From Candidatus Diapherotrites archaeon CG08_land_8_20_14_0_20_30_16 (GTDB lineage: Archaea; Iainarchaeota; Iainarchaeia; Iainarchaeales; 0-14-0-20-30-16), in the NCBI GenBank assembly GCA_002779075.1, contig PEXK01000040.1, forward strand, positions 1 through 31,846: a DNA stretch of 31,846 nucleotides, given 5' to 3'. The notes under the pieces are model-generated. The model ran no database searches, was not told where the DNA came from, and worked only from the letters and a program-made list of their open reading frames with translations. Positions within the stretch are counted from its first letter, which is position 1; every line of letters begins with the position of its first letter. The position numbers and the translations under genes are program-made. This document shows, in pieces, positions 2,924 through 28,255 of this stretch.

Positions 2924-5099
2924 TTTGGTTTTCTTTTTCTTTCTTTAGTTTTGGTGTTTTAATTGATGCTTTTGGTTTTATTATATTTGCTTTTTGTAAA
3001 TTTATTTCTGTTCCTTTTTTCTCATTTCTTGCTTCTTCTTTGTTCAAAGAAGAATTGGATAGATCTTTTTTTGAAAAAGAATTTTGATAATCTTTATTTG
3101 TGCTACAACTAGGATTAATGCAAAATTCGACAGGATCTTTCTTTAGGGGCTGTTTTAATTGTATTAATGGTGCCTTACACAGTTCGCAAACCTTGTTTGT
3201 GAAGGTGATTTCGCCTTTTTGTGGCAAAGGATAACTTTGTGTACATTTTGGAAATTGAGAACAACCAACAAATATTTTTCCTAACTTTGATGTTCTTTTA
3301 ACTAGGTTTGCATTACATCTCTGACATTTACCGACAACATTTGCCTGTTGGTGTGTTGCTCTTATAGTTGTTGATATTTCTTTTTTATTTTTGTAAAGGG
3401 TATCTAAAATTTCTAATAACATTTTTTTAGAATCTTCAACGACTTTGTCTTTTGTCAGGTCGCCTTCTTCTATCTGATTCATTTCATCTTCTAATTTTGC
3501 AGTCATTTCTGGCGACACAATGTGTTTTGCATAATCTTCTAATGTTTTTACTACTGTTTTTGCCATATTGCTCGGCTTGATTTGCTTTTTCCCAGAAATA
3601 TAATCTCTGCTATATAATTTTTGCAAAATTGCAGGTCTTGTAGATTTCGTTCCCAAATTCAATTTTTCCATTAGTTTGATTAGTGTACCTTGTGAATATC
3701 TTACGGGGGGTTGTGTTTTTTTAGACAACAATTCTTTGTTTGTTATAGGCAAGATCTCGCCAATAACTAATTCTGGCAGAACTGCTTCTTTTTGATTAGT
3801 ATAAGGATAAATATCTAACCAGCCTCTATCAATAAAAATTAGGCCTTTTGAAATAAATACTTCCCCATTAACATCGAACTCCGCGTTTGTTGTTAATGCT
3901 TTTGCATCTTTGTATAAAGTTGCTAAAAAATGACCGACAATTAGTTTGTACACTTTCCAATCTTCTGGATGTAATTTTTCTTTTGGCGCTAAAGTTACTG
4001 GGTGAACTGGCGGATGATCTTTTGTTGTAACTCCTTTGGAAGGAGTTATTTTTTCTTGTTTTAATATTTTGTCAATTGCTTTATCAAATTCTGATCCTCT
4101 CAAATTAACCAATATTTTATCGATGTTTACCCCTACGTATGTTTGATTATCTGTTCTTGGATAACTAATGTATCCCCGCATGTAAAGATTTTCCGCAATT
4201 TCCATTGCTTTCATAGCATCAACATTTAGATTTGCAGCAAAACGCAAAAAATCAGTAGTGTTAAGAGGCACTGGCCTCTTTATTGCCATTTCTTTTTTTT
4301 CTAAATTGATTACTTTTGCTTTCTGCCCTATATTGGAAAATATTTTTTCTGCTTCTGCTTTGTTTAAAATTCTTCTTTTTTTGTATTCTGCTTCAAATTT
4401 TGTTTTTTGTTTTTCTAACTCTAGTTTTATTTCCCAATAAGGGCTTGATTTAAAATTTTCAATTTCTAATTCCCTTTCGACAATTTTTGCCAAAGTTGGG
4501 CTTTGCACTCTTCCAACACTCAAAAAATCTTTGCCAACTAAACCTGTGCTAGTACTTAAAAACCGTGTTAAAATTGCACCCCAGTACAAATCTATTTCTC
4601 TTCTTGAATCTGCAGCGTCAGCAAGTTTTTCATTTAAAGGAATTAATTTGCTGAATGCATTATTCATTTCATCAGAAGTTATTGCTGAAAAATATGCTCT
4701 TTCTACTTTCGTTTTGGATTTTTTAGCTAAAATTATTTTTACTGCTTCTCTTCCTATTGATTCCCCTTCCCTATCAGCATCTGTTGCAATTATTAATCGT
4801 TTAGCTTCTGTTTCATTCAAGCTTCTAACAATTCCTGGTTGTGTTGTTTTGTAAAATAATGCATCGCTTTTAATAATGTTTTTTAAATCAGTATACCAAC
4901 TAGAATATTCCTTTTTGAAATCAACATCTGTTATGTGTCCTTTCAAAGGAATTAAAATACACCTCCCTAAAAAAGAGGTATCAAATTCAAAAGTAGTTTG
5001 CCATTTTTCTCTGTTTGTTTTCATTTTTCCATCAGATAAAATTTGTGCAATGCTTTGTCCAGCAATAGGTTTTTCTGAAATAATTATAGTATCATACAT
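2907..5099 (-). CDS. topA: Type IA DNA topoisomerase (TopA/Topo III-like) with C-terminal zinc ribbons
   Basis: Toprim motif IIATDADREGESIG. Active-site region GYISYPRTDNQ. C-terminal Cys4 ribbons (CQRCNANL...GCSQFPKC; CELCKAPL...CINPSC) followed by a Lys-rich tail. The ORF track starts at GTG 5108, but ATG 5099 (MYDTIIISEKP) fits Toprim N-termini better. Confidence 0.9.
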   Translation of the reverse strand: MYDTIIISEKPIAGQSIAQILSDGKMKTNREKWQTTFEFDTSFLGRCILIPLKGHITDVDFKKEYSSWYTDLKNIIKSDALFYKTTQPGIVRSLNETEAKRLIIATDADREGESIGREAVKIILAKKSKTKVERAYFSAITSDEMNNAFSKLIPLNEKLADAADSRREIDLYWGAILTRFLSTSTGLVGKDFLSVGRVQSPTLAKIVERELEIENFKSSPYWEIKLELEKQKTKFEAEYKKRRILNKAEAEKIFSNIGQKAKVINLEKKEMAIKRPVPLNTTDFLRFAANLNVDAMKAMEIAENLYMRGYISYPRTDNQTYVGVNIDKILVNLRGSEFDKAIDKILKQEKITPSKGVTTKDHPPVHPVTLAPKEKLHPEDWKVYKLIVGHFLATLYKDAKALTTNAEFDVNGEVFISKGLIFIDRGWLDIYPYTNQKEAVLPELVIGEILPITNKELLSKKTQPPVRYSQGTLIKLMEKLNLGTKSTRPAILQKLYSRDYISGKKQIKPSNMAKTVVKTLEDYAKHIVSPEMTAKLEDEMNQIEEGDLTKDKVVEDSKKMLLEILDTLYKNKKEISTTIRATHQQANVVGKCQRCNANLVKRTSKLGKIFVGCSQFPKCTQSYPLPQKGEITFTNKVCELCKAPLIQLKQPLKKDPVEFCINPSCSTNKDYQNSFSKKDLSNSSLNKEEARNEKKGTEINLQKANIIKPKASIKTPKLKKEKENQTINNF

Positions 5100-5117
5100 T
5101 TTAATCACATCTAAAAT
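5091..5117. repeat. Copy 1 of a 27-nt direct repeat (covers the topA start codon)
   Basis: ATCATACATTTTAATCACATCTAAAAT at 5091..5117 matches ATCATACATTTTAATCACATTTAAAAT at 5176..5202 at 26 of 27 positions. Confidence 0.85.
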
Positions 5118-10641: not shown

Positions 10642-11685
10642 TCAATAGTAAAGGAAAGCTGCAATACCAGATATGTTATCTAATATTCTGCCAGATTCTG
10701 TTTCTGAATTTACAATGTGATATTCTATCTTATTATCTTCTAACATCAATAAAAGGTTTTTAATTTCTGTGAAGTTTTCATGAAAGAATTTGTCACTAAT
10801 TAATACTGATTGCAATGCATTTCTATCAAGAGCTTCTTTAATTTGTACTAAACCATAAGTAACGGGTTTGTCTTTGGCCAAATGTAACAAGAAGGTATCT
10901 ATTAATTCCGAATCTTTTTGAACATTTATATTGCCCAATACTTTTTTTACTTGCCCACCTTTTATTAACTCGTTAATTCCTGAAATTCCAGGGCTTGATG
11001 CTTGTGTAAAAATAAACCTATCCAAAAATTTTTTATCAGAAAATTTAGTTTGAATATATTTGTGCAGGTTTTCTTTTTCAAAACCAGGACCGCCAACAAT
11101 GCACTTATCAAAATCGCTGTTAGTCAATACTTTTAAAATAGAATCAAAATAGCTTTGCCTAGAAATCTCTTTTGCGTGAGGATCTCTTTTGCCCGAACCC
11201 TTAAAAAAGATCTCTACAACAACATCATATCTTGTTTCATTTAAAGTAGCTATAACACAAGAATCATCATCTAAAACAGCCAAATAAATCCTAGCATTTA
11301 ATTTTTCTTGAAGGGCTTTGTCCAAAATCTTTTTCTGTATTGCAAGTAAAGACTGTTTATTTATTGATAATCTATCACCAACATGAAAATCAAAAGAATG
11401 GTGTTGCCCAACAACAACATATTCTGGAGGCGAACCAGAATCTATAATGCCTATTACTTTTAAACACTGTAAATTTAAATCTAATTTTGTGTTTTTTGCG
11501 TCTAATTTGATAAAAACAGACTTTTTTTCAGAATCGTCAGAATCTTGTGCTCTAAATCTTCTTGTCGTACGACTTCCTACTTTGTCGCCTTCAGAAATGA
11601 ACAAACTTAAGGCCCAAAGATCATCAATATTTTCAATTCCTAATTCGAAAAACAAGTCTTTAAAATTCTTTTTATATACTTTCAT
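10642..11685 (-). CDS. pelA: Pelota (Dom34 homologue), ribosome rescue / mRNA surveillance factor
   Basis: The N-terminus IENIDDLWALSLFISEGDKVGSRTTRR is characteristic. The central and C-terminal eRF1-like domains are present (IVGGPGFEKENL, SSPGISGINELI). Length 347 aa. Confidence 0.9.
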   Translation of the reverse strand: MKVYKKNFKDLFFELGIENIDDLWALSLFISEGDKVGSRTTRRFRAQDSDDSEKKSVFIKLDAKNTKLDLNLQCLKVIGIIDSGSPPEYVVVGQHHSFDFHVGDRLSINKQSLLAIQKKILDKALQEKLNARIYLAVLDDDSCVIATLNETRYDVVVEIFFKGSGKRDPHAKEISRQSYFDSILKVLTNSDFDKCIVGGPGFEKENLHKYIQTKFSDKKFLDRFIFTQASSPGISGINELIKGGQVKKVLGNINVQKDSELIDTFLLHLAKDKPVTYGLVQIKEALDRNALQSVLISDKFFHENFTEIKNLLLMLEDNKIEYHIVNSETESGRILDNISGIAAFLYY

Positions 11686-11715: not shown

Positions 11716-11736
11716 GACTATTTATTGAGATTATTT

Positions 11737-13518
11737 ATGTATAAAAGAAGAATTGCAATTATTGATTCAAAAAAGTGTAGACCTAAACTCTGTGGCGAAG
11801 TTTGTATTAAAGTTTGTCCTATGAATAGAATGGCGAAAAATGTAGTATACTATGAAGGTGAAGCAATAAAAATAGACGAAACATTATGTTCTGGTTGCGG
11901 AATTTGTGTTATAAAATGCCCTTTTGACGCAATAAAAATAATAAATCTAGAACTAATACTGGACGACCCTTTACATCAATATGGTGAAAATAGATTTAGA
12001 TTGTTTAGATTTATAGACCTCCCTAAAAAACAGAATATCGGCGTTATTGGTCAAAATGGTATAGGAAAATCAACAATAATTAAAATTCTTGCAGGCCAAA
12101 TAATTCCTAATCTTGGAAAGTATAAAGAAAAAGCAGATTATAAAAAAGTTGTTGAAAATTTTAAAGGTAAAGAAATACAAAAAACATTTATCAATTTAAA
12201 TAAGAGCTTGTTTGAGTTTGCATATAAGCCACAAAATATTGAACTTATTCCCGAGGTTTTTAATGGCAAAGTTGTTGATCTGTTGAAAAAATCAGATAAA
12301 AACAATAAATTAAATGAAATAGTTGAATTATGGGATTTAAAAAACCTATTGCAAAAGGATATTAATATACTGTCTGGTGGCGAACTGCAAAAAGTAGCAA
12401 TAGTCTCAACAGTATTGAAAAATGCAAATGTTTCTTTTTTTGATGAGCCTAGTTCATTTTTAGATATTAAACAAAGATTCTTGTTTGCTACAAATCTTCA
12501 AAATTCTTCTAAAGAAGAAACAAGAAATGAAAAGAAAAATCAAGAAACTAAGGAAAAGACAAATATTATTGTTGAACATGATTTAGCAATTTTAGATTAT
12601 ATTGTTGATTATTGTCACATTCTTTTTGGTCAACCACATGCATACGGAATTTGTTCGCACATTAAAAATACAAATGTGGCTATAAACGAATTTTTATTTG
12701 GCTTTATTAAGGATGAAAACCTAAGGTTTAGGGATTATGAATTAAATATAAATTATACTCCTAGCAATATAAAAACAGGAGATGTTTTGTTTGATTATTC
12801 TGAAAACAAAGTTAAATTAGGAAAATTTACATTAGAATATCCACAAGACGAAATACATAATAATCAAATTATTGGAATAATTGGAGAAAATGGCACAGGA
12901 AAAACAACCTTTATAAAAAATATTTTAGAAAAATCCAATAACTATGACAATTTGAAGTTTGCGTACAAACCACAAAGTCTTTTACTTCGAAAACAAGAAA
13001 TGGAATTGCCAGTTATGTTTTATTTGAAAGATTGTGATCAAGATCTTTTAAAAGATCTTTGGAATAAATTAAACATTGAAAGAATAAAGATGTATAAGTT
13101 GGGTGAGTTAAATGGTGGAGATTTGCAAAAGGTAATTACAACAAAGGTTTTGGCCACTAATGCAAATGTTTATTTAATTGATGAGCCTAGTGCTTTTTTA
13201 GATGTTGAAGAACGATTGAATATTGGAAAAGCAATCAGAAATATAATTTTAGAAAAAAACAAAGTTGCATTTGTTGTTGACCACGACATTTTATTTTTGG
13301 ATTTTATATCAGATGCTATTCTGATGTTCTCAGGAACACCTGGCCAACAATGTCACGCATCAAATATTATGAACAAAAAAGAAGGCATGAACAAATTTTT
13401 GAAAATATTAAATATAACGTATAGAAAAGATCCAATAACTAAAAGACCTAGAATAAATAAACAAAATTCCAGCAAAGACAAAGACCAAAAACTTGCAGGA
13501 AACTATTATTCTTTTTAG
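11737..13518 (+). CDS. abce1: ABCE1 / RNase L inhibitor (Rli1), ribosome recycling ATPase
   Basis: N-terminal twin 4Fe-4S motifs CRPKLCGEVCIKVCP and CSGCGICVIKCP. Two ABC cassettes are present. Cassette 1: GQNGIGKST, LSGGELQKV, FFDEPSSFLD. Cassette 2: GENGTGKTT, LNGGDLQKV, YLIDEPSAFLD. A K/E-rich insert (SSKEETRNEKKNQETKEKTN) sits in NBD1. The ORF track TTG is at 11725; ATG 11737 (MYKRRIAIID) is preferred. Confidence 0.93.
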   Translation: MYKRRIAIIDSKKCRPKLCGEVCIKVCPMNRMAKNVVYYEGEAIKIDETLCSGCGICVIKCPFDAIKIINLELILDDPLHQYGENRFRLFRFIDLPKKQNIGVIGQNGIGKSTIIKILAGQIIPNLGKYKEKADYKKVVENFKGKEIQKTFINLNKSLFEFAYKPQNIELIPEVFNGKVVDLLKKSDKNNKLNEIVELWDLKNLLQKDINILSGGELQKVAIVSTVLKNANVSFFDEPSSFLDIKQRFLFATNLQNSSKEETRNEKKNQETKEKTNIIVEHDLAILDYIVDYCHILFGQPHAYGICSHIKNTNVAINEFLFGFIKDENLRFRDYELNINYTPSNIKTGDVLFDYSENKVKLGKFTLEYPQDEIHNNQIIGIIGENGTGKTTFIKNILEKSNNYDNLKFAYKPQSLLLRKQEMELPVMFYLKDCDQDLLKDLWNKLNIERIKMYKLGELNGGDLQKVITTKVLATNANVYLIDEPSAFLDVEERLNIGKAIRNIILEKNKVAFVVDHDILFLDFISDAILMFSGTPGQQCHASNIMNKKEGMNKFLKILNITYRKDPITKRPRINKQNSSKDKDQKLAGNYYSF

Positions 13519-17670: not shown

Positions 17671-17991
17671 TTACCTATATTTTACTAAAGCACCAGAACT
17701 TACTTTTGCAGGTTCTGTTCTTGTTTCTCTTATTGTATCTTTTCCTCTAGGATTTACTATTATGATATCCTTTACAGCTATTACTGTCTTATAAGGTATA
17801 CTTTTTTCAGTAATAATTTTCTTTGCCTCCTGTTTTGTTCTAACCTTTAAAGGAGCAGTGGTAATAGTTTCCATACTGCCATTTTCTAAATTTACAACAA
17901 TATCATAAACCTTTCCTTTATACTCACCAGATTGTGTGAATATATCTCTACCAAACAACTCAGATAATCTAAGCATTAACAATCCCCCCAT
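17671..17991 (-). CDS. PRC-barrel domain protein
   Basis: LSELFGRDIFTQSGEYKGKVYDIVVNLENGSMETI matches the PRC-barrel pattern (G..V....G..lG.v.d...d...g.i). An alternative ATG is at 17976. Confidence 0.7.
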   Translation of the reverse strand: MGGLLMLRLSELFGRDIFTQSGEYKGKVYDIVVNLENGSMETITTAPLKVRTKQEAKKIITEKSIPYKTVIAVKDIIIVNPRGKDTIRETRTEPAKVSSGALVKYR

Positions 17992-18193
17992 TTAAGAAAA
18001 CATCACAATTATATAAAATCCAACCCATTTATATACCTTTCCTTTTATCCTTTTTTCTTTGAAAACAAAAAATAGTAGAATAGAAGGGTGTCCCAAAGGG
18101 TTTGCCTCAAAGAAAGATTTAAATATCTTGCTGTTTTCTATAATCTATAAAATATTAAGTTCGAATATTTGTAAGAAGGACGAAGGTGATTAT

Positions 18194-18478
18194 ATGTATA
18201 AATATTCTATTGCAAAACAGTTAGCATCCAAAAGGGTAATCACCAACAGAGGGGACGAAGTTGGAAAAGTGTTAGATATCTTAGTGGACGAACTGTCAGG
18301 TACTTTGGAATATCTTCTAGTAGAGATAGATATTGATTCAAAAGTAACAAGAACATTAAAATTAGATCAGAAAAACAGAATAGTTAAAATACCTTATTCT
18401 GCAGTATCTGCTGTTAGTGATGTGTTTATTGTTGATGAAAAACAAATTATTATCGATAACGAAGAACTTATTCAATAA
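18194..18478 (+). CDS. PRC-barrel domain protein
   Basis: LASKRVITNRGDEVGKVLDILVDELSGTLEYLLVEI is a PRC-barrel pattern. ATG 18194 is preceded by GGTGAT (18185..18190). The ORF-track TTG start at 18059 adds 45 non-conserved-looking residues. Confidence 0.7.
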   Translation: MYKYSIAKQLASKRVITNRGDEVGKVLDILVDELSGTLEYLLVEIDIDSKVTRTLKLDQKNRIVKIPYSAVSAVSDVFIVDEKQIIIDNEELIQ

Positions 18479-19604
18479 GAAAAACAATCTTTTGTTTTTC
18501 TTTTTCTATTTTTTTTAATTTTATTTTTCTTCCTTTTTCATAGTCTTTTATCTCTTTTTCAATACTTTCAATATTCTTTTTTTCTTCTAATCCGTTTTTA
18601 ACAATTATTTTAATTTGATTCAAATAATCAAAGTTTTGGTAAATACAATCACCAATAATTTTATATTTTGCTGTTTTTTCATTCAGTTTTTCTTTTGCTC
18701 CTTTTTGTTGGTTTAAAGTATATTCAATATTTTGTTTTTCTTTTTCAAAATCTTTTTTATTTTTATTTTTGGACTGTAAAAATTCAGGTTTTAAGATCAA
18801 TTCTTCATATATTTGATTTAAATTATAATTTATTTCCTGCAAAAAGGGAAGATTTAAATTATAAAAAGTAACTTTCTTCTCCAGAATTATTATTTTTGTT
18901 TTTTCATAAAAAAGCAATGAAAATATTTTTTTAATTCCCACAACAACTTTTTTATAAGTCTTAAAATCAAATACGTTTTTGTCATTTTTTTCACTTTCTA
19001 AATATTTTTCAATTAGTATTGGACTTATGTTACAATTTTTAACAATATTTGACACCATATTTTTTTTAGAATTTATATCATCCTCTTTAGGAACATAAGA
19101 CAATACATTTTTTACATTTGTTGGAGGAATATATTTTTCTCCTCTTGCGATAGTTCTATCTTTCCACTTTTCTTTATATAAACAAAGAACAATCTTGTCA
19201 GAACCATCAGTTAAAATAATATTATTACTAGAAAAGAATTCAAAATATAGTTTGTAATCTTGAAAAATGAACAAAATAAGTTTTTCTAAATTTAGTTGGA
19301 GTATATTCATTATTTGTTTATTTTCTAAAATCCCATTCATTTCCTTTAAAAAGCCCTTAGTTTCACTAGTTTCAACAATAAGATTGGTAATTCCTGCAAA
19401 ACCACCACCAACAATTAAATCTTTATTTTCTTTGTCTTTCCTTATTCGTATTTTTATAAATAAGTTATCCGCATTTACTTTTTGTATCTTTTGTGGACGC
19501 CCAAACACCAATTCTTTTTTTAAAAACCATTCCAAATACATGAAATTTGTGTTATTAAATTCTATTTCTTTGCCTTTAAATTCCTCTAGATTTATATTAG
19601 ACAT
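18468..19604 (-). CDS. N-terminal half of an NFACT protein (Rqc2/NEMF/RqcH/FbpA family): NFACT-N domain plus first coiled-coil arm
   Basis: The NFACT-N signature runs FLKEMNGILENKQIMNILQLNLEKLILFIFQDYKLYFEFFSSNNIILTDGSDKIVLCLYKEKWKDRTIARGEKYIPP (compare the family pattern F..LRK.L.g..i..i.Q...dRi..f.f....L..ElF..GNiiL.d....I......R.i..g..Y.pP). A K/E-rich helical region follows. The ORF ends at 378 aa with no NFACT-R/DUF814 domain. Its start overlaps the HAD gene stop by 13 nt. Confidence 0.8.
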   Translation of the reverse strand: MSNINLEEFKGKEIEFNNTNFMYLEWFLKKELVFGRPQKIQKVNADNLFIKIRIRKDKENKDLIVGGGFAGITNLIVETSETKGFLKEMNGILENKQIMNILQLNLEKLILFIFQDYKLYFEFFSSNNIILTDGSDKIVLCLYKEKWKDRTIARGEKYIPPTNVKNVLSYVPKEDDINSKKNMVSNIVKNCNISPILIEKYLESEKNDKNVFDFKTYKKVVVGIKKIFSLLFYEKTKIIILEKKVTFYNLNLPFLQEINYNLNQIYEELILKPEFLQSKNKNKKDFEKEKQNIEYTLNQQKGAKEKLNEKTAKYKIIGDCIYQNFDYLNQIKIIVKNGLEEKKNIESIEKEIKDYEKGRKIKLKKIEKEKQKIVFLIE

Positions 19605-20197
19605 TTTAATTCCTTAAAATCTTTAATTATTGCATCAGGATTATATTTGATCAAATTATTTTTCGAATACAAAACATCTATCTTTCCAATGGTTTTTGTT
19701 TTTGCATTTTTGCCAAATAAAATATCATTAATATTATCTCCAATGTATATTATATTTTTTGGTCTTAATTTATATTGTTTAATAATTTTATTTAAACTTT
19801 CGGGATTTGGTTTTGGATGATTATAATCTTTTGGGGTAAGCACAAAATCAAACAAACACAAGCTATCTTTTAAAGTCAAAATTGCAACTCTTTGTATTGA
19901 ACTAGTAATAATTCCCAAAATATACTTCTTTTTTAATTTTTTTAACAAATCTTTTGTGTCTTGAGTTACTACTTCTCTTCTTTTGATTTCTTTTTGGTAT
20001 TTCTTTTCCCAAAGGTGATTGTACAACACAATTTTCCTTTCAGACAAATTAGGAAAAGCATTTTTGATTAAAATTTTTGAAGGCGGTCCGAAAAACTGCA
20101 CAAAGAACCTTTTTGGTTTGTGAAATAGTTTTGCAAACAAATCAAGTTCTATATTTGTGACATTTACTATTGTACCATCCATATCAAAAACAAGCAT
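19592..20197 (-). CDS. HAD-superfamily phosphatase (PGP/beta-PGM-like subfamily)
   Basis: Motif I FDMDGTIVN, motif II LGIITSS, motif III KPNP, motif IV GDNINDILFGKNA. ATG 20197 avoids the overlap with aRF1 that the ORF-track start at 20269 creates. Confidence 0.8.
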   Translation of the reverse strand: MLVFDMDGTIVNVTNIELDLFAKLFHKPKRFFVQFFGPPSKILIKNAFPNLSERKIVLYNHLWEKKYQKEIKRREVVTQDTKDLLKKLKKKYILGIITSSIQRVAILTLKDSLCLFDFVLTPKDYNHPKPNPESLNKIIKQYKLRPKNIIYIGDNINDILFGKNAKTKTIGKIDVLYSKNNLIKYNPDAIIKDFKELKCLI

Positions 20198-20231
20198 TTT
20201 TGTATCTTTCTTCAGCTTTGCCAAATTGTCT

Positions 20232-21443
20232 TTAATATCGTAGGATTGCACCAACACCACCAAAAGCATTATAAAATTGTTGACCTTCGCTTGTATCTCT
20301 AGATATAAACATAACTTCTGTACCTGTTTTTTTTGCTAATTCATAAAAATATTCGCCAGCATCCAATTCTTCAATTTCTTCTATATCTTTTGAATTACAG
20401 CTAGGACAAACAGAGGTGTCAGTATTTGCAAAGAAGCTTTTGTTACAGGAATTACATTCAAAGCTCGCTTGATCTATTTTTAGGTCTTCTGACACCAGAA
20501 CTTTGGACGCTCTACCTTCTTTTATTGCTTGTACAACTTCATTAAGCCCATAAGTCGCTAAGCTGGTTTTTACAACTTTTTCAAAAAAATTAGCAATCTC
20601 TTGTTTCTCTTTCACCAATTCGCTCTCTTTTAACATATCCTCTGACAAATCTATAATTTCTTTTATACCTGATTCATCTGTGTAGGTATTATCTAAAAAA
20701 CCAATAATTTTATCTTTTAATCTATAATCTAATAATCCTCTTTCTACCATTTTCTTTTTTGTCGATCCTGGGCCCCCAAAAACAAATCCCTTAAATTTGC
20801 CCTCTTGAACTAAAGGCACAAAAATTTCATTTATTTTTTCAGATATTCGCGTATAAAACTCTTGTGCTGCTTCTTCTCTTAAATGCTCGAACCGGGTAGC
20901 TGATTGTCCTCCCGCTTTAATCTTTCCTGGTACATTAGAATTTAACCTGGCAACGATTCTATATGCTTTACCTATCAAAGTAGCCAAGGTAGCTTCTCTA
21001 TTATCTATTGCAACAATACCATAAATATTGTTTGGAGCTAACATTTCTAACAGAGGGTCCAAATAAAAATCAGAATCACACCTATATAATTTTACCCTCA
21101 GATCTTTAACAGGAATAACATGAAACATTTGAATGTCTGTTCTTCCTTCAAATTCAGATACATTTCCACAAAACAATGCTAGACCTGTTTTTGGTATTGT
21201 GAAATCAGTAACTTTCAAATACTGAATCAATTTTCTTAAAGCGCCTTGGACATTCTTTCTTGTAATTGCAGATTTTATGTTTGAAGATTGACTTACTTCA
21301 TTTGTCAATTGATTCATAACTCCTGAGCGATCAGTATTGTTAGGGATATACAAAGATATTAACTCAGTATGTTTTCCTTTGTAATTTCGCAATTCTTTCA
21401 ACTTGCGCTTAAAAATCTCTGTTTCTGCATCCACAAAATTCAC
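20232..21443 (-). CDS. prf1: Peptide chain release factor aRF1
   Basis: NIKS stop-codon recognition motif (SSNIKSAITRKN). YxCxxxF motif (LYRCDSDFY). GGQ motif (KAGGQSATRFEHLREE). A Cys4 insertion sits in domain C (CNSCNK...CPSCNS). There is no ATG near the 5' end. Candidate starts are GTG 21443 or GTG 21434; the latter lies 5 nt after GGTGA. Confidence 0.92.
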   Translation of the reverse strand: MNFVDAETEIFKRKLKELRNYKGKHTELISLYIPNNTDRSGVMNQLTNEVSQSSNIKSAITRKNVQGALRKLIQYLKVTDFTIPKTGLALFCGNVSEFEGRTDIQMFHVIPVKDLRVKLYRCDSDFYLDPLLEMLAPNNIYGIVAIDNREATLATLIGKAYRIVARLNSNVPGKIKAGGQSATRFEHLREEAAQEFYTRISEKINEIFVPLVQEGKFKGFVFGGPGSTKKKMVERGLLDYRLKDKIIGFLDNTYTDESGIKEIIDLSEDMLKESELVKEKQEIANFFEKVVKTSLATYGLNEVVQAIKEGRASKVLVSEDLKIDQASFECNSCNKSFFANTDTSVCPSCNSKDIEEIEELDAGEYFYELAKKTGTEVMFISRDTSEGQQFYNAFGGVGAILRY

Positions 21444-21551
21444 CCAAGTATTTTTTTTGTATTAGCACAAAAAATAATAAAAATCAAATCTTTTAAGTAT
21501 ATAATTATTGGTTATGTTTTTAATCTCTCCTACTACTTTTAGATTTTTTTA

Positions 21552-22493
21552 TCAATAATGTCTCTTGCACAGAACTAAGAATTCAGAATAATTTATAATA
21601 GGAAAATAATAGTTTTTATAATCATCAAAAATTCTAGGGCAGGCGGTATTAATCAAGAAGTTTATGCCTAGGCCAATTAATTTATTGCTATTTATTTCAT
21701 TTCCATAAAGCAAAATAGGCTCTTTTTTTATTTTTTTTATTTTTTGTGCCAATTCTTGAGCAAGTTTTATTCTATTTTGTCCTAATTTTGAACTAACATA
21801 TATACCAATAACTTTAGCTTCTAAAAACAAAGCAGAATAATTAGGTTTTTTAATATCTTCGATCAATTCAAATTGCCCTTTAAAGTTGTACTTGTATGCT
21901 TTAGTGTTTTGTAGAGCATTAAAATGAAAGTTCCCATCTCCCAAATAAATAACAGTATATAATTTATTTATTATATTTTGAATTGATGAACAATCGCAAC
22001 CCAAAATTTGATTTGTTTTTAATCTATTTGTTTGTTTTCCCAAAATAATGTCCAGCTTTTTGTGTCTCTTTAATTCTTTTATAATCTTCAATATAAATTT
22101 CTCATATTGTATTGGTCCGACAATAGTAATTTTCTTTTTTGAAAAATATTTTTCAATATCTTTAACTATCTTTTCAATATCTTGAATGTCAAAAGAATAA
22201 TAACAAGGCCAATATATCACTCTTTCTTTAATTTTGTTCAAAACAAATTTGGTGTGGCCAAAATGAATAATTGCCTGACAATCTGCTTTTTTCAAATCAT
22301 TTTCATAAATATCGCATGCGCCAAAAGTAGTATCAATATTCAAAACAAATTCTTTTTTAGTATCTTTTAACTCGTCAACAATTTGTAGACATTTGTGCTT
22401 TAGGCCTTCGGGGAGTTCTAACATAAATCGCTTAGCCTTGTTTTTAATTAATATTTTTTTTAATTCATTTAGATTTAAATCTAGTTTTAACAT
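21552..22493 (-). CDS. dph2: Diphthamide synthesis protein Dph2 (2-(3-amino-3-carboxypropyl)histidine synthase)
   Basis: The N-terminus is typical (FMLELPEGLKHKCLQIVDELK). Three spaced Cys residues (GACDI, LGCDCS, NTACPR) fit the noncanonical radical-SAM 4Fe-4S ligands. Length 313 aa. Confidence 0.8.
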   Translation of the reverse strand: MLKLDLNLNELKKILIKNKAKRFMLELPEGLKHKCLQIVDELKDTKKEFVLNIDTTFGACDIYENDLKKADCQAIIHFGHTKFVLNKIKERVIYWPCYYSFDIQDIEKIVKDIEKYFSKKKITIVGPIQYEKFILKIIKELKRHKKLDIILGKQTNRLKTNQILGCDCSSIQNIINKLYTVIYLGDGNFHFNALQNTKAYKYNFKGQFELIEDIKKPNYSALFLEAKVIGIYVSSKLGQNRIKLAQELAQKIKKIKKEPILLYGNEINSNKLIGLGINFLINTACPRIFDDYKNYYFPIINYSEFLVLCKRHY

Positions 22494-22557
22494 AATATAT
22501 ATTGAGTTTTAAAAGTATAAATAGTTATTGTTTGTAAAAAATAGGAACGGAAAATGG

Positions 22558-25500
22558 TTATAATTTAGCCCTTTTCTTTAGGTTTGATGCTTTGATTTGG
22601 TCTAGTAGCATTTCTTTTTCTGTATTGTATACAACCTCTTTTATTTTGTCAACACTATCAATGTTTGCAGAAATAGAGTCTATGCCAATTTTAACTAATT
22701 CTTTAACCATTTCCGGGTTAGATCCTGCCTGGCCACAAATTGATGTTCTTACCTTCGCAGGCTTACAAAATGAAATAACGTGCGCAATTTGTTTCAATAT
22801 GCTTGGGTGTAGTTCAGTAAACCATTTTTGGATCTTTTCATTATTTCTATCCAATCCTAGAGTTAATTGAGTTAAATCATTTGTTCCAAAACTTACAAAA
22901 TCTATTTTTGCATCAATATAATCCTCAATTGTTAATGAACAACCAGGAGTTTCAACCATAATTCCAAAGAAACAATCTTTGTGAGGTTTCAATCCAACAC
23001 TTTCTGCAATCCTTTTTGCTTCTATATATTCTTTAACGTGCTGTGTAAAAGGAATCATAATGCCAATGTTTCTGTATCCCTTAGCAATAATATTTTTTAT
23101 TGCTCTGAATTGTGTTTTTAATATTTCTGGTTCATCAATATCTCTTCTTATGCCATGCCAACCTAGCATTGGATTGTCCTCTTTAGGTTCTGTTTCTCCA
23201 CCTTTCAAATTTCTATATTCGTCTGTTCGAGCATCAAAAGTTCTATAATAAACAGGTTTGTTTTTGAACAATTTCATAATTTTTTCTAATTCTGTTTCTA
23301 AAAGTTTTTGTAATTCTTTTGATTTTCCTTTATGAACCATATAATAAGGATGTTCTTTTGCAGCAGTTAAAATATGTTCTGCACGCATTAATCCAATACC
23401 ATCAGGATTTGTTTCAAATGCTCTTTGTGCAGCATCACTAAATGCTAAATTTACTTTTACTTTTGTTGTTGTTACAAAATCAAAAGATTTTAAATTCAAC
23501 TCATTATGTTTTTCAACAATATTGTCTTTATGAACAACTACTCCTTTGTAAATCTTTCCTTTATTTGCATCAACAGTAATAATTTCTTTGTCCCTTAACA
23601 CCTTTGTTGCAGTTTCTGTTCCAACAATGCAAGGAATTCCTAATTCACGAGAAACAATAGAAGCATGACAGGTTATTCCTCCTTCATCAGTAACAATAGC
23701 AATTGCTTTTTTCATTTGTGGTACCATATCAGGAGTTGTCATTTTAGTTACCATAACATCTCCTGTTTTTACTTTATCCAGTTCTTTAATCGAATGAACA
23801 ACAATTACAGGGCCTGATTTTATTCCAAAACTTGCACCTAACCCTGATAAAATTGCTTTTGCATCAATTGTTTCTGAACTTTTTTGTTTATTATCTGTAG
23901 TTAAAGTAGTTATAGGTCTTGATTGAACAACATATAATTTATTTTTTTCGATCGCCCATTCAATATCTTGTGGTTTATCATAATGTTTTTCAATTGCATT
24001 GCCGATTTTTGCATATTGCAGAACAACATTATCTGAGATTTTTTGCTTTGCTTGCAAAGCAATTGGTACATTCACTTTTTTTGTTGTTCCTTTTATATCT
24101 CGAATCAGTTTCCAAGATTGTTTGCTTATTATCTTTGATTTTATTTTCATTGTTTTTTTATCAATAATAAAAGTATCTGGTGTTACACTTCCCGAAACTA
24201 TAGCCTCTCCTAAGCCATAACAAGCTTCAATTACAATTTCTGATAGATTGTTGTTTGTAGGATTTGCAGTAAACATTATTCCTGAAATTTCTGAAGCTAC
24301 TTGTTTTTGAACAACAACTGCTAGTTTTACCTTTTCTATTGGAAAGCCTTGCTTGCGCCTATAAAATATAGCCCTTGGATTAAATAAAGAGGCCCAACAT
24401 TTTTTTACATTCTCCAGTAACTTTTCTTTACCCAAAATATTTAAATAAGTATCTTGTTGTCCCGCGAAACTCGCACTATTGTGGGTTATAATCCCTCCTA
24501 TTCCTGATGCGAAATTTTCTACTTCGGGGACAGTGAAATCATACACTTGCCCAGTGTATTGTACTTCTTCTATACTTTTGATTTTATCCCATCTTACACT
24601 TCCGGTAAAAAAATCTTTATAATCAGTTATTCCCAGTTGATTCATTTCTTTGGAAAAAGATTTCTGGCTGAGTGTTCCGCTAATTAAACCTTTGTTCCAA
24701 GGGATTTGATATTTTTTAAATTTTCCCATTATATCATAATAAACATATCGTTCTACCTCTTTACTAGGCAATTCTTGTTCATAATATGCACGGTGGCATG
24801 AATTGCAATAATATCTTTCTTTTTTCTTATATTTACTAGATTTATTTACAACTGCTTTACATTGTGGGCACAACCTAACTTTTATGGCTGTTTTTGGTAG
24901 GGTAGAATCATATTGTGCTTTAATTTTAGTTGTAAGCTCAGGGGTTATAGAAATACAATGCATAAATTCAGGATGGCTACTTTTTTGTTCTTGACTATTA
25001 ATTAATTTATTCAAGTTTTTTAATTTATTTTTATCAACAAACCCTATTAGATTTTTAAATTTTTCCCCTTCGCGGGCGGGAATAAGGATTCGGTAATGGT
25101 CATGCCATTTTAAATTTTTGCTTTTATATTTTTTAAGGGAAAATTCTATATTTAAAATTTCCAATAATTTTATAAGTCCCCCCGTTAACAATAAAGAAGT
25201 TGAAGAATATCCAATTCCATTTGGTTCTATTCCACCATCTTCATCAAAAGCGCCTTTAAGAAATTCTCCAATTAGTTCTTTTTTCCAACCAAATACAAAC
25301 TCTGGCACCCTCTTTACTAAACTTAATTTGCCTTTCCCTTTTTGTTTAAGAGGCACCCCAGCAACAGTATGTAAGAATTTAACTAAGGCTTTACAATATA
25401 CTTGCAAACTATATTTATTGATTTTTACATTTGTGTTTATGCCTAAGTGTTTAATGAATTTTATTGATTTGCTTCTTATTTTTGAATTTGAGTTAGTAAT

Positions 25501-26427
25501 TGTTATACAATTATTTTTGTAAGTCGAGCCTTCTGCACAATATATTCCTAAAAAATAGGCTAAATCTTTTGTAAATTTTATTTTTTGTGGTAAAGGTTGT
25601 TGTGTCTTCCAATTATTAGCATTGTTTTTAATATATATTTTGTTGTTTTGTTCTACTATATCCTTTCCTGTAATGATATTTAATACGTCAATTTCTGTAT
25701 TTTTACAATTTAATTCTGGAAGGTGGTTGATTGTAGGAACTTTTTCTCCGCCTTTAAGATCAGAAACTTTAACTGTCTTTTGCGTTAAATTATTTTCATC
25801 TAAAATTATAAGAGAATGATTTGGAGAAATTGTTACTTCTCTACCACTTACTGTTTTGATTTTATATAATTTATCAGAATTTGCTGGGTGTTTATATATT
25901 GCGCTTACTTTTTTCCATACTATCTCATTGTTATATAAAGAAGGTATTTCAACTACGTTTTTGTTTGGATTGAGACCATCAAACTCTTTCATTAAACGAT
26001 AAAATGGGTTGCCATTTATCTTTGTTAGTATATGCTCATTTTCTGAGATGCTTGGCAAGTCTTCAGCTGTTGCTGAACTTCTTACCGCTACCAAACAATC
26101 TCCGCCTAATTTTATATATGCTTCAACAATTTTCTTTTTCAAATCTGGTTTTATTGGTTCATTCAGAATAATTTTTTTTATTTCTGCAGCTTTTTCATTC
26201 AATTTAGTTATATTGTTGACATCAATATTTTTTTCAATATCTTCTATTTTTTTAAGAATTCTGGTTTCTAATGCATTTTTTTTATAAGTATATGCAGTTA
26301 TAACAAAACCCCCAGGTATGGGAAAATTGTGGTTGTACATTTCCCCTAAATTAGCGCCTTTTCCGCCAACTTCTGGTATTTGATTTTTATTTATTTCGTT
26401 AAACCACAAGATCTCTTTATTTTGCAT
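22558..26427 (-). CDS. ppsA: Phosphoenolpyruvate synthase (PpsA), interrupted by an in-frame intein
   Basis: ATP-grasp motif EVGGKGANLGEM. VAVRSSATAEDLP and SASFAGQQDTYLN are separated by 525 aa. Phosphohistidine domain GGITCHASIVSRELGIPCIVG. PEP-utilising barrel FVSFGTNDLTQLTLGLDR. The extein totals 764 aa. An AGGTG lies 5 nt upstream of the ATG and overlaps the upstream stop codon. Confidence 0.93.
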   Translation of the reverse strand: MQNKEILWFNEINKNQIPEVGGKGANLGEMYNHNFPIPGGFVITAYTYKKNALETRILKKIEDIEKNIDVNNITKLNEKAAEIKKIILNEPIKPDLKKKIVEAYIKLGGDCLVAVRSSATAEDLPSISENEHILTKINGNPFYRLMKEFDGLNPNKNVVEIPSLYNNEIVWKKVSAIYKHPANSDKLYKIKTVSGREVTISPNHSLIILDENNLTQKTVKVSDLKGGEKVPTINHLPELNCKNTEIDVLNIITGKDIVEQNNKIYIKNNANNWKTQQPLPQKIKFTKDLAYFLGIYCAEGSTYKNNCITITNSNSKIRSKSIKFIKHLGINTNVKINKYSLQVYCKALVKFLHTVAGVPLKQKGKGKLSLVKRVPEFVFGWKKELIGEFLKGAFDEDGGIEPNGIGYSSTSLLLTGGLIKLLEILNIEFSLKKYKSKNLKWHDHYRILIPAREGEKFKNLIGFVDKNKLKNLNKLINSQEQKSSHPEFMHCISITPELTTKIKAQYDSTLPKTAIKVRLCPQCKAVVNKSSKYKKKERYYCNSCHRAYYEQELPSKEVERYVYYDIMGKFKKYQIPWNKGLISGTLSQKSFSKEMNQLGITDYKDFFTGSVRWDKIKSIEEVQYTGQVYDFTVPEVENFASGIGGIITHNSASFAGQQDTYLNILGKEKLLENVKKCWASLFNPRAIFYRRKQGFPIEKVKLAVVVQKQVASEISGIMFTANPTNNNLSEIVIEACYGLGEAIVSGSVTPDTFIIDKKTMKIKSKIISKQSWKLIRDIKGTTKKVNVPIALQAKQKISDNVVLQYAKIGNAIEKHYDKPQDIEWAIEKNKLYVVQSRPITTLTTDNKQKSSETIDAKAILSGLGASFGIKSGPVIVVHSIKELDKVKTGDVMVTKMTTPDMVPQMKKAIAIVTDEGGITCHASIVSRELGIPCIVGTETATKVLRDKEIITVDANKGKIYKGVVVHKDNIVEKHNELNLKSFDFVTTTKVKVNLAFSDAAQRAFETNPDGIGLMRAEHILTAAKEHPYYMVHKGKSKELQKLLETELEKIMKLFKNKPVYYRTFDARTDEYRNLKGGETEPKEDNPMLGWHGIRRDIDEPEILKTQFRAIKNIIAKGYRNIGIMIPFTQHVKEYIEAKRIAESVGLKPHKDCFFGIMVETPGCSLTIEDYIDAKIDFVSFGTNDLTQLTLGLDRNNEKIQKWFTELHPSILKQIAHVISFCKPAKVRTSICGQAGSNPEMVKELVKIGIDSISANIDSVDKIKEVVYNTEKEMLLDQIKASNLKKRAKL
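24478..26052 (-). mobile_element. Intein (525 aa) with a LAGLIDADG homing endonuclease domain, inserted in ppsA
   Basis: N-terminal splice junction EDLP/SISENEH (Ser1). Block B is TISPNHSLII. The LAGLIDADG motifs are LAYFLGIYCAEGS and IGEFLKGAFDEDGG. Block F is QVYDFTVPEVENFASGIGG. Block G and the +1 residue are IITHN/S. Removing the element restores EDLPSASFAGQQ, which matches the conserved PpsA motif. Confidence 0.9.
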
Positions 26428-26435
26428 AGAAACAC

Positions 26436-27182
26436 CTACAAATTATAATCATCAATATTTTTTACGACAATCCCATTGTCTGTTATTTCCATTGGGTGAA
26501 TCTCGCTAGAATGTTTTGTTGCACGCATTTTTCTTATCAACAAAGTTCTATTAATTCCTTGTATTCCGGTATCCAAATATTTTAAAACAAAAACTCCGTC
26601 TGCAACATACTCTTCTACACCATATTTGCTATATTTGTTTGTTGATGATTCCAATTCTGAAACCAATAACGCAGTTAGACCTAATTTAGAAAAAACATAT
26701 ATCATTTCAAGTATTGCTTCTCTTATGTGATCTGAACCATCAAAATATATTCCCAAAGTTGCAATAGAATCTATGACTATTCTTTTAGCATTAGTTTCTT
26801 TTACTGCTCTAATTATTTCTAAAAGCAGTTTTTTGTAGTCAAAAGTATTTTCAGAATATGCAGTAGTTTCACCACTATCTATTCCTAATCTACTTACTGT
26901 AGCATCAAACAAAACTACCTTTTTTTCATCTTCCATTCTTTTGATATTCCAACCAAATTTTAACATATCTTCTCTTATTAATTCTGGTCTTTCATCCAAA
27001 GTAACATATATTCCTGGTTCGCCGTACAAATATGCTCCTTGATACAAAAATTGCATTGAAAAAATAGTTTTTCCCGAGCCTGTTGCACCAGAAACTAAAA
27101 AAGACCTTTTTTTTGGCAAACCGTTTTCGATTAATTCATCCAAACCAGGAACTCCTGTAGGAATTCTGTTTATAATATTCAT
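26436..27182 (-). CDS. KaiC/RadA-like RecA-superfamily ATPase (single domain)
   Basis: IPTGVPGLDELIENGLPKKRSFLVSGATGSGKTIFSMQFLYQG contains the Walker A motif. RIVIDSIATL is Walker B-like. Start at ATG 27182 (MNIINRIPTG), preceded by GGAGATGGTG. Alternative starts are ATG 27233 and GTG 27299. Its stop codon overlaps the ppsA SD. Confidence 0.8.
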   Translation of the reverse strand: MNIINRIPTGVPGLDELIENGLPKKRSFLVSGATGSGKTIFSMQFLYQGAYLYGEPGIYVTLDERPELIREDMLKFGWNIKRMEDEKKVVLFDATVSRLGIDSGETTAYSENTFDYKKLLLEIIRAVKETNAKRIVIDSIATLGIYFDGSDHIREAILEMIYVFSKLGLTALLVSELESSTNKYSKYGVEEYVADGVFVLKYLDTGIQGINRTLLIRKMRATKHSSEIHPMEITDNGIVVKNIDDYNL

Positions 27183-27409
27183 AACACCATCTCCAAAAAT
27201 ATTATTTTCAATAATATATTTTCTCGAAGTCATCAAAAGCCCATCTTTGCAGTTTAAATATACAAAACTTAAAAAAAGTTTTGATATTTTAACAGACACT
27301 TTACAAGTTCTTCAACCTTTGTAAAGCCAGATGCCATTTTGATGCCGGCAATAACCTATAAATATATAGTTAAGACATATATGTTATATAAATATAAAAA
27401 GGTTTTGTT

Positions 27410-28255
27410 ATGTTTCCTAAAAAAGAAGGGTCTATTGAATTTGAGATTAATATTAAGGACTCCATAAACGCATCTGCACAAAGATATTTTGATGATTATA
27501 AAAAAATAAAGAAAAAGCTCATAGGGTTGGATGTAGCAATAACAAATACTGAAAAGAGATTATCTGAATTGAATAATAAGAAAATCGAGGTTAAAGAAGT
27601 AATGGAAAAGAAAAAGCTTGCATGGTATGAAAAATATCATTGGGGTTATACTAGGGCTGGTTTTTTAATAATTGCTGGCAAAGATGCTCAAAGCAACGAA
27701 TACATTGTAAAGAATCATTTAGAGAAAGATGATTTGTTATTTCATAGTACAATTCAAGGGTCCGCGCATGTTATTTTGAAGAATGGGCAAAAAGCAGAGA
27801 AAGACGATTTAGAAGATTGCGCTTTGTTTGCTGCAATATTTTCAAAAGCATGGAATCTAGGGTTTGCATCTGTTGATGTTTATTTTGTTTATCCTGATCA
27901 AGTATCAAAAACACCAGAAACTGGAGAATATTTATCACAAGGCGCCTTTGTTATTAGGGGTGAGAAGAATTTCTTTAAAAAAGTACAAATGATTCTTTGT
28001 TTAGGAATTATAGATATCGAAACCCTAGACAAAAATACCAAAGGAAAAAGAGTTTTTATAGGCTCAGAGAAATTATTGTTGCAAAAAGGAATAAAAATAA
28101 TTGCAGAAATAATTCCTGGTAAAGACAAAAAAGGAGATATTGCAAAACAGATACACAATAGATTGGACAAAGAACAGAAAAAAGAAATTTCATTAGATGA
28201 GGTTATTCAATGTTTGCCCCCTGGAACCTTGGATTTCGTAAAAAAGAGAAAGTAA
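27410..28255 (+). CDS. C-terminal half of an NFACT protein: second coiled-coil arm plus NFACT-R (DUF814) domain and C-terminal region
   Basis: SINASAQRYFDDYKKIKKK matches the family pattern eNA..yf.kYKK.K. The DUF814 core is WYEKYHWGYTRAGFLIIAGKDAQSNEYIVKNHLEKDDLLFHSTIQGSAHVILKNG, continuing AALFAAIFSKAWNLGFASVDVYFVYPDQVSKTPETGEYLSQGAFVIRGEKNF. There is no NFACT-N domain. At 281 aa, it sums with the 378-aa N-half to 659 aa, the size of full-length archaeal NFACT proteins. Confidence 0.85.
   Translation: MFPKKEGSIEFEINIKDSINASAQRYFDDYKKIKKKLIGLDVAITNTEKRLSELNNKKIEVKEVMEKKKLAWYEKYHWGYTRAGFLIIAGKDAQSNEYIVKNHLEKDDLLFHSTIQGSAHVILKNGQKAEKDDLEDCALFAAIFSKAWNLGFASVDVYFVYPDQVSKTPETGEYLSQGAFVIRGEKNFFKKVQMILCLGIIDIETLDKNTKGKRVFIGSEKLLLQKGIKIIAEIIPGKDKKGDIAKQIHNRLDKEQKKEISLDEVIQCLPPGTLDFVKKRK

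Follow-up and report, generated by a model that had tools for sequence, protein, structure and literature searches.

A split gene for RqcH, the archaeal Rqc2/NEMF homologue, in a Candidatus Diapherotrites archaeon

RqcH, the archaeal homologue of Rqc2 and NEMF, is normally the product of a single gene. We describe here a stretch of DNA of 31,846 nucleotides (nt) from Candidatus Diapherotrites archaeon CG08_land_8_20_14_0_20_30_16 (GenBank assembly GCA_002779075.1, contig PEXK01000040.1, positions 1 to 31,846), in which this protein is divided between two open reading frames (ORFs) lying on opposite strands, with 7,806 bp between them. Each ORF has its own start and stop, and together they cover, without overlap, a protein which is ordinarily encoded in one piece. 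We think it probable (about 0.8) that the two products reassemble without a covalent bond, through an antiparallel coiled coil and the pairing of two strands. The whole stretch is called the window in what follows; its G+C content is 24-33%, and gene content was judged within its 31.8 kb only.

Results

The first ORF (the N-half; 18468..19604, minus strand) encodes 378 amino acids (aa) from an ATG start and carries the NFACT-N domain, the helix-hairpin-helix (HhH) region, the first coiled-coil helix (CC1) and the first part of the M domain. The second ORF (the C-half; 27410..28255, plus strand) encodes 281 aa, also from an ATG, and carries the third strand of the M domain, the second coiled-coil helix (CC2), the NFACT-R domain and the C-terminal domain. 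At NCBI, on a 56.8-kb contig of this metagenome-assembled genome of a Candidatus Diapherotrites archaeon, the two proteins are PIU22197.1 (COT14_02475) and PIU22203.1 (COT14_02505), and both are labelled "hypothetical protein". We compared them with NF041120 (RqcH_arch), an NCBIfam equivalog profile of 645 positions whose cut-off for a whole protein is 400 bits. Residues 32-374 of the N-half match positions 16-373 of this profile (E 7e-31, 107.7 bits), and residues 10-276 of the C-half match positions 380-644 (E 8.5e-88, 295.7 bits). Hence the two halves abut, with a gap of six positions and zero overlap. Each half singly misses the cut-off and their sum, 403.4 bits, lies at it; all the domains of RqcH are present, on two ORFs and not on one polypeptide. 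The cover was equally contiguous and non-overlapping against 82 full-length (fused) archaeal homologues.

The C-half contains the complete Pfam domain NFACT-R_1 (PF05670, model positions 1-112) at aa 75-184 (E 4.5e-33), preceded at aa 7-70 by the tail of the Pfam NFACT_N model (positions 367-430), and it matches residues 453-651 of human NEMF (E 3.9e-28). The N-half falls below every Pfam threshold, that of NFACT_N included, and a sequence search of the PDB gave no match for it; its NFACT-N identity is backed by the NF041120 profile, by homologues bearing PF05833 and by a fold match (below). An earlier note, made from the letters of the window alone, had called this NFACT-N domain clear, which is true of the profile, the homologues and the fold, and not of the Pfam thresholds or of the PDB sequence search. 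Its other statements on the two ORFs are borne out: the long K/E-rich helix of the N-half is CC1 (aa 262-340), the missing NFACT-R part is the separate plus-strand gene, as NFACT-R_1 and the match to NF041120 indicate, and the lengths add to 659 aa exactly as claimed (378 + 281). The ends of the ORFs are clean as well, the N-half overlapping the next gene by 11 nt and the C-half being preceded by nothing but an AT-rich spacer.

The position of the cut was read from an alignment of the concatenated halves with the 82 fused archaeal homologues (590-705 aa). The N-half stops directly after the strand KQKIVFLIE, its end being …EKEKQKIVFLIE and the stop codon. The C-half starts with MFPKKEGS, continues with the strand IEFEINI and then enters a helix whose start is the conserved S-x-x-x-N-A-x-x-Y-Y. 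In the fused proteins a D-G turn links both strands, as in the homologue P0067 (NKVTLNL-DG-IKVSLDVEKSLEENAELYY), and the E-G of the C-half aligns there. In one other protein, P0010 (418 aa, from a 5.6-kb JGI contig), the sequence runs on across the junction (…KTVTINVDGKEIELSINDSAGENSENYFSKAKHLKNKLKGLEEAI…) and, after about 45 further residues, departs from the alignment and ends; a fused gene cut short is its probable source.

An AlphaFold2 model of the artificial concatenation of the halves, computed with an alignment of fused homologues, has a mean predicted local distance difference test (pLDDT) of 90.5 and a predicted template modelling score (pTM) of 0.79. A loop at 379-385 joins the strands 372-378 and 386-392 of this model, and the CC-M element (CC1 262-340, M domain 345-392, CC2 397-434 in the numbering of the concatenation) is shared out over two polypeptides. 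The cut falls in a hairpin turn on the surface of this M domain, a small domain lying at the distal end of the coiled coil. On the minus strand, the NFACT-N domain (aa 1-160, 19125..19604) is delimited by the alignments, has its strands between 36 and 141 in the model and reaches a target-normalised template modelling (TM) score of 0.72 to 3doa and 5h3x. The HhH region (aa 180-248, 18861..19067) is made of the model helices 180-191, 195-204 and 214-230 and of a small sheet at 237-248; CC1 (18585..18821) of the helices 262-323 and 325-340, with a pLDDT of 93-98; and the share of the M domain held by the N-half (aa 345-378, 18471..18572) of the helix 345-355 and the strands 361-367 and 372-378, the stop codon following right after KIVFLIE.

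On the plus strand, the third M-domain strand IEFEINI (C-half aa 8-14, 27431..27451) is placed by the junction alignment and by the model strand 386-392, and CC2 (C-half aa 19-56, 27464..27577) by the model helix 397-434 and the Pfam NFACT_N tail. They are followed by NFACT-R, or DUF814 (27632..27961, from PF05670), and by the archaeal RqcH C-terminal domain with its LPPG motif (27962..28252), in which the profile is matched up to position 644 of 645, P and G are invariant and the pLDDT is mostly above 90. A Foldseek comparison of the model with the PDB gave NEMF (9gy4_Z; E 3.9e-33, query TM 0.63), Rqc2 of yeast and RqcH of B. subtilis, the matched entries including also 8aaf_a, 7aqc_R and 7as8_0; the N-terminal crystal structures 3doa and 5h3x and CCDC25 were matched as well.

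The split is found again in other assemblies and in other organisms. The exact N-half protein occurs in NCBI, JGI, ENA and Logan assemblies, which agree on this locus, and the same gene with its stop codon and its neighbours lies in separate ENA and JGI assemblies (loci L091 and L092, relatives at strain level). One nonsynonymous difference in the N-half was counted with these two loci, on which the ratio of nonsynonymous to synonymous substitution rates has no power. The next relatives are at about 45% protein identity, with saturated synonymous sites; we used the conservation of the ORF boundaries as evidence of selection instead. Both halves, each time on one contig and in the same layout as in the window, are present in three more distant relatives (L001; L004/L005; L006), at an identity of 45% for the N-half and of 66-71% for the C-half. 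The order is there N-half (minus strand), HAD hydrolase, aRF1, in places a radical SAM gene, Dph2, phosphoenolpyruvate (PEP) synthase, KaiC-like gene, C-half (plus strand), NifU and cysteine desulfurase. From genome to genome, the N-halves are 45-48% and the C-halves 65-71% identical, with intact frames and equal ends. The flanks of both ORFs, read directly in the sequence, are free of gene remnants. The split is real, and is neither an assembly artefact nor a recent lesion. The view of the earlier note that this is a functional split gene, of the sort known from Nanoarchaeota, and not a pseudogene is upheld by the contiguous cover, by the same boundaries in the relatives and by the concordance of independent assemblies.

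One of the genomes concerned, GCA_030154545.1 (L005 and L087), holds two different N-halves, of 366 aa and 391 aa. Since each of them stands in its own syntenic context (aRF1, HAD, N-half, PRC), this assembly appears to mix two related organisms.

Stand-alone halves are not confined to this clade. With the C-half as query, a library of representatives at 50% identity returned 2,556 matches, and we classified the matches listed together with the earlier ones. Among the matches listed, 65 are stand-alone C-halves, nearly all of 257-303 aa, and 90 are fused proteins of about 530-720 aa. The 65 stand-alone forms have their Met at one shared alignment position (e.g. MKIELDxxKSxxENAxxYYxKAKK). The best clade of a rough neighbour-joining tree of the C-half region comprises 57 split and 5 fused forms; the split forms stand mostly together, which only suggests that they cluster. 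We also scanned the species representatives of GTDB with a narrow C-half alignment and considered the best 80 loci, the taxa being those of the submitters' titles. A stand-alone C-half was present at 32 of the 80, under the titles Diapherotrites/Iainarchaeum, Woesearchaeota, Nanoarchaeota, Micrarchaeota, Nanobdellati and plain "archaeon". The fused loci among the 80 are from Nanohaloarchaea, Aenigmatarchaeota and, outside DPANN, from Bathyarchaeia, Methanoperedens, Thermococci, Thermoplasmata and Stygiolobus. Many DPANN archaea have the split form; the fused gene is that of Nanohaloarchaea, Aenigmatarchaeota and non-DPANN archaea.

Some C-halves of the DPANN type bear non-DPANN titles: Methanosarcinales (L041, L066, L081), Acidobacteriota (L051) and Thaumarchaeota (L070). 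One non-DPANN-titled contig with a split C-half is 665 kb long. We take these titles to be errors of binning or labelling; the alternative is that the split form has spread beyond DPANN.

A profile search with N-halves gave 201 matches, about 89 of which are stand-alone proteins of 335-400 aa with PF05833 only, many of them named "NFACT family protein" and belonging to Woesearchaeota or Nanoarchaeota. Nearly all of these stop on the same strand (…KGHKLIKxVNSKDKxIxIEV, then the stop codon), and most retain E-R, E122, G-N and R150. An N-half pattern picked out 36 metagenome loci, every one of them a stand-alone ORF (257-397 aa; 346-397 aa in 34 of them). No intermediate with an adjacent N-half and C-half was seen in these 36 metagenome loci and the 80 genome loci, the sole adjacent pair, L063, being a broken gene. 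On these comparisons, the split is both old and widespread in DPANN. As for L063 (8825-10855, Bathyarchaeia, CAYGBS010000011.1), its rqcH pieces are on the same strand, with an N piece of 395 aa and a C piece of 184 aa which begins at profile position 98, about 100 residues having been lost; either a broken gene or a frameshift in sequencing would seem to be the cause, and the case differs from the split in DPANN.

The surroundings of the two genes differ. The start of the N-half overlaps the stop of the upstream HAD-hydrolase gene by 13 nt (19592..19604, minus strand), as it also does in L001 and L004, and because of this overlap, co-transcription and translational coupling of the N-half with the HAD and aRF1 genes are suggested. 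The C-half is separated from a divergent KaiC-like gene by an AT-rich spacer (27300..27409), in which TATA-like runs lie 12-50 nt ahead of the ATG; this is its presumed promoter, from which it would be driven on its own. Between the halves, a minus-strand block (19592..27299), assigned with Pfam and NCBIfam and kept in L001 and L004/L005, encodes the HAD hydrolase, aRF1, Dph2, a PEP synthase with an intein and the KaiC-like ATPase. The KaiC-like ORF (26436-27299, minus strand) has 287 aa as against 247-248 aa in the relatives, and a PRC-barrel ORF (18059-18478, plus strand) has 139 aa as against 93-94 aa; the true starts of both are probably at later codons than those of the listed ORFs. With a later KaiC-like start, the spacer upstream of the C-half would be nearer 230 nt than 110 nt.

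The window also encodes Pelota (10642..11685, minus strand; TIGR00111, 196 bits for a cut-off of 177.65) and ABCE1/RLI (11725..13518, plus strand; NF009945, 644 bits for a cut-off of 469). Pelota and ABCE1 split stalled ribosomes and would thereby yield the substrate of RqcH; the factors which generate this substrate are thus present in the window. The two genes form a divergent pair 7 kb from the N-half, with a Dus tRNA-modification gene nearby, and the neighbourhood as a whole is rich in translation and rescue genes (Pelota, ABCE1, aRF1, Dph2, Dus). At L087 and L091, ABCE1, TFIIE and Dus are likewise near the N-half.

Directly downstream of the N-half are two PRC-barrel genes, 17671-17991 (minus strand) and the one at 18059-18478, the latter sharing the 11-nt overlap with the 3' end of the N-half. 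The pair accompanies the N-half also in L001, L004, L087 and L091, and a single such gene does so in L090; this synteny is kept where the N-halves are only 29-33% identical, and has no known link with RqcH. The PEP synthase ORF (22558-26427, minus strand) has 1,289 aa, including an intein at 24478-25962 (about aa 156-650) recognised by the Pfam domains Intein_splicing and LAGLIDADG_3 (LAGLIDADG homing endonuclease), and its orthologues in L001 and L004 are intein-free, with 761-764 aa. A neighbourhood with Mut7-C and AMMECR1 has been reported for archaeal NFACT genes (PMC4075521); neither was matched among the genes scanned around the two halves.

Discussion

The two ORFs would encode the subunits of one RqcH, acting on large subunits which still hold a peptidyl-tRNA after Pelota and ABCE1 have split the ribosome. 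In bacterial RqcH, NFACT-N and HhH touch the anticodon stem-loop of the tRNA only, the sole contacts with the 50S subunit are made by NFACT-R at the A-site finger and by the distal CC-M tip at uL11/H44, and the coiled-coil helices undergo a scissor-like motion through the cycle (bioRxiv 10.1101/2020.09.03.281279). On this contact map, the cut parts the tRNA-facing module from the ribosome-anchoring one, at the place where the chain reverses. An ancestral single gene would have been cut in the turn of the M-domain beta-hairpin. The N-half would have received the tRNA-facing module (NFACT-N and HhH), CC1 and one helix and two strands of the M domain, and the C-half the third M strand, CC2, the ribosome-anchoring NFACT-R and the archaeal C-terminal domain. 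The two would be synthesised separately, the N-half in an operon-like run with aRF1 and HAD and the C-half from its own divergent spacer. CC1 would then zip onto CC2 and the last strand of the N-half pair with the first strand of the C-half, and the M domain, rebuilt in this way, would dock on the uL11 stalk base. This two-piece RqcH would bind the ribosome and have tailing activity. The N-half has kept a helix of about 80 residues and M strands which are sensible only as partners of CC2 and of the third strand; from this we infer the reassembly.

Several points weigh against this interpretation. Outside the clade of the window, no C-half was found within 10 kb of any N-half at the loci with long flanks, and the halves are usually unlinked there. 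The AlphaFold2 model is that of an artificial fused chain: it tells that the two sequences are compatible with the fold of RqcH, and the assembly of two chains is beyond its reach. A full-length paralogue may lie elsewhere in the genome. Moreover, the N-half evolves faster in this clade. Among fused pairs with C-parts 64-73% identical, the N-parts are 55-69% identical, and the N/C ratio is 0.77-1.02, mostly 0.85-0.95; in the three split pairs (N 45-48%, C 65-71%) it is 0.62-0.74. Two motifs of NFACT-N face the tRNA, "D/E-R" (or "DR") and "EIM" (bioRxiv 10.1101/2020.09.03.281279). The Arg of D/E-R, present in 82 of 82 fused archaeal homologues and in 84 of 89 stand-alone N-halves, is Lys (K108) in the window and in its four closest N-half relatives. 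Gly127, with exactly the same counts elsewhere, is replaced by Asn in four and by Ser in one of these five sequences (in the window the codons of E107-K108 are at 19281-19286 and that of N127 at 19224-19226, minus strand). The tRNA-facing function of the N-half may be altered or weakened in this clade. The acidic residue of D/E-R is kept as E107 (the fused homologues have D in 47 cases and E in 35), "EIM" reads E122-F-F with its invariant E122, N128 and R150 are likewise kept, and the two replacements are conservative.

According to the strongest of the rival explanations, the halves no longer cooperate: the C-half would act alone on the large subunit in the manner of CCDC25/Jlp2, and the N-half would have drifted to another or to a reduced role. 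It agrees with the unlinked halves of most lineages, with the acceleration of this clade's N-half relative to its strongly conserved C-half (60-76% identity), with the loss of the invariant Arg and of Gly127, and with the presence of CCDC25 among the fold matches, solo NFACT-R proteins being known (PMC4075521). However, an N-half without CC2 would have no obvious role for the full CC1 and M strands, which end at the same place in about 89 N-half clusters. The tRNA-facing residues are retained by most N-halves, and the two half-families are both abundant and have complementary boundaries. We hold this explanation to be unlikely.

Far less probable is it that the ORFs are decaying pieces of a pseudogene, possibly with an intact paralogue elsewhere. 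The labels at NCBI are merely hypothetical, the N-half is under the Pfam threshold, and a truly broken rqcH does exist in the Bathyarchaeia of L063. Against this, ORFs with the same boundaries are found across lineages which share just 25-45% identity, the synteny is kept, the matches are strong (E 7e-31 and 8.5e-88) and the pLDDT high, and there is no debris beside the genes.

A mis-joined or wrongly inverted contig separating a normal gene is hardly credible either. The layout would fit one inversion, and the source is a metagenome-assembled genome; yet the N-half, its stop and its neighbours recur in separate ENA, JGI and Logan assemblies and on the 56.8-kb NCBI contig, and the arrangement is repeated in three divergent species, each half having its own start and stop. 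That a split intein joins the halves once they are translated, or that they are joined as RNA, is in our opinion just as implausible: an intein is present in the PEP synthase of the same window and split inteins are known in Nanoarchaeota, as in the DNA polymerase of N. equitans, but 659 aa is the length of the fused homologues (590-720 aa) and leaves no space for intein fragments, Pfam recognised no intein in either half though it detected that of the PEP synthase, and the ends (FLIE for the N-half, MFPKK at the start of the C-half) lack intein junction residues, so that the split intein was rejected on lengths and absent motifs.

Non-covalent reassembly of two separately made halves being thus the explanation we prefer, one may ask how the split arose. 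The present order, namely the N-half on the minus strand, five minus-strand genes and the C-half on the plus strand, would follow from one inversion having a breakpoint in the hairpin turn. Turning round the stretch between the N-half and the KaiC-like gene, both included, brings KaiC-like, PEP synthase, Dph2, aRF1, HAD, N-half and C-half onto one strand. Since the split is far older than the clade, the linkage observed there is perhaps ancestral, perhaps coincidental. More speculatively, a single ancient cut of the M hairpin could be common to Iainarchaeota, Micrarchaeota and Woesearchaeota/Nanoarchaeota, N. equitans included, the modules having since been expressed, regulated and evolved separately, and the N-half of this clade could have changed its choice of tRNA, hence the composition of the tail, or have taken a role independent of tailing. 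We offer this as a tentative scenario, on which we would not insist.

If RqcH has long been kept in two pieces in many lineages, this suggests that it can do without a covalent bond at the coiled-coil tip. The split protein is a natural system in which the tRNA-recruiting half can be parted from the ribosome-anchoring one, useful for reconstitution and for the little-studied ribosome-associated quality control (RQC) of archaea. There is also a practical consequence: the halves are labelled "hypothetical protein" or "NFACT family protein" and are singly below the profile cut-off, and therefore surveys of the pathway would score these DPANN archaea as lacking RqcH. Finally, the cut is at exactly the same site across several phyla and the gene is fused in Nanohaloarchaea and Aenigmatarchaeota; the split may serve as a rare genomic change with which DPANN relationships can be tested.

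Comparison with known systems

The earlier note knew of no description of a split RQC factor; there is, in fact, a precedent. Podar et al. 2013 (PMC3655853, Table 1 and supplement file 2) list a "Predicted RNA-binding protein" which is split at the same site in two nanoarchaea (NEQ438-506 and Nst1_176-251). Both Nst1 genes belong to arCOG01695, that is COG1293 (PMC3655853), and COG1293 is the RqcH family (bioRxiv 10.1101/2020.09.03.281279). This precedent is easy to miss because it stands under the old COG name and predates the RQC function. The split Nanoarchaeum gene is said to go back to Waters et al. 2003, whom Podar et al. 2013 cite for it. No mention of an NFACT split was found in the NFACT family paper (PMC4075521), in DPANN reviews or by full-text searches, and RqcH is absent from the lists of split genes in the DPANN reviews examined (PMC6349945 among them). 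Compared at the level of the family, NEQ438/506 and Nst1_176/251 resemble our case in being two non-adjacent genes of a reduced DPANN genome, and for them, too, a split gene was proposed, with products that come together after translation (PMC3655853). Unlike that record, the present analysis gives the structural position of the cut, and extends the split to Diapherotrites/Iainarchaeota and to many Woesearchaeota, Nanoarchaeota and Micrarchaeota. Our finding is not new in kind, split genes being a known trait of DPANN and the family being already on the nanoarchaeal list; the breadth across DPANN, the structural position and the fast N-half with Lys for an invariant Arg have possibly not been described so far.

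Other split genes of DPANN archaea (reverse gyrase, alanyl-tRNA synthetase, Glu-tRNA amidotransferase, Dph1/2) are also single-copy genes of information processing with halves scattered in small genomes, cut where reassembly in trans is possible (PMC3655853, PMC6349945). Topoisomerase I is split in N. equitans (PMC3655853) and Dph1/2 in several phyla (PMC6349945). In contrast to those cases, the topoisomerase IA (2907-5108, minus strand; 733 aa with Toprim, core and Zn ribbon) and the Dph2 (21552-22493, minus strand; 313 aa) of the window are unsplit.

With the fused RqcH proteins (the archaeal RqcH of NF041120, B. subtilis RqcH, Rqc2 and NEMF), the two halves share the domain order NFACT-N, HhH, CC-M, NFACT-R, to which a C-terminal domain is added, HhH being part of the order published for the family (bioRxiv 10.1101/2020.09.03.281279). 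The profile is covered end to end, and E122, R150 and the invariants of NFACT-R are retained. The differences are that there are two polypeptides, cut in the M hairpin, and that this clade has Lys for Arg and Asn for Gly127. The C-half taken alone resembles CCDC25/Jlp2, in which a short coiled coil accompanies an NFACT-R domain without NFACT-N (PMC4075521; fold matches 7eoe and 8woh). However, CCDC25/Jlp2 arose by partial duplication beside an intact NEMF and has its coiled coil C-terminal to the domain, whereas the C-half is the orthologous remainder of the only detectable RqcH, carries CC2 on the N-terminal side and has kept the archaeal C-terminal domain.

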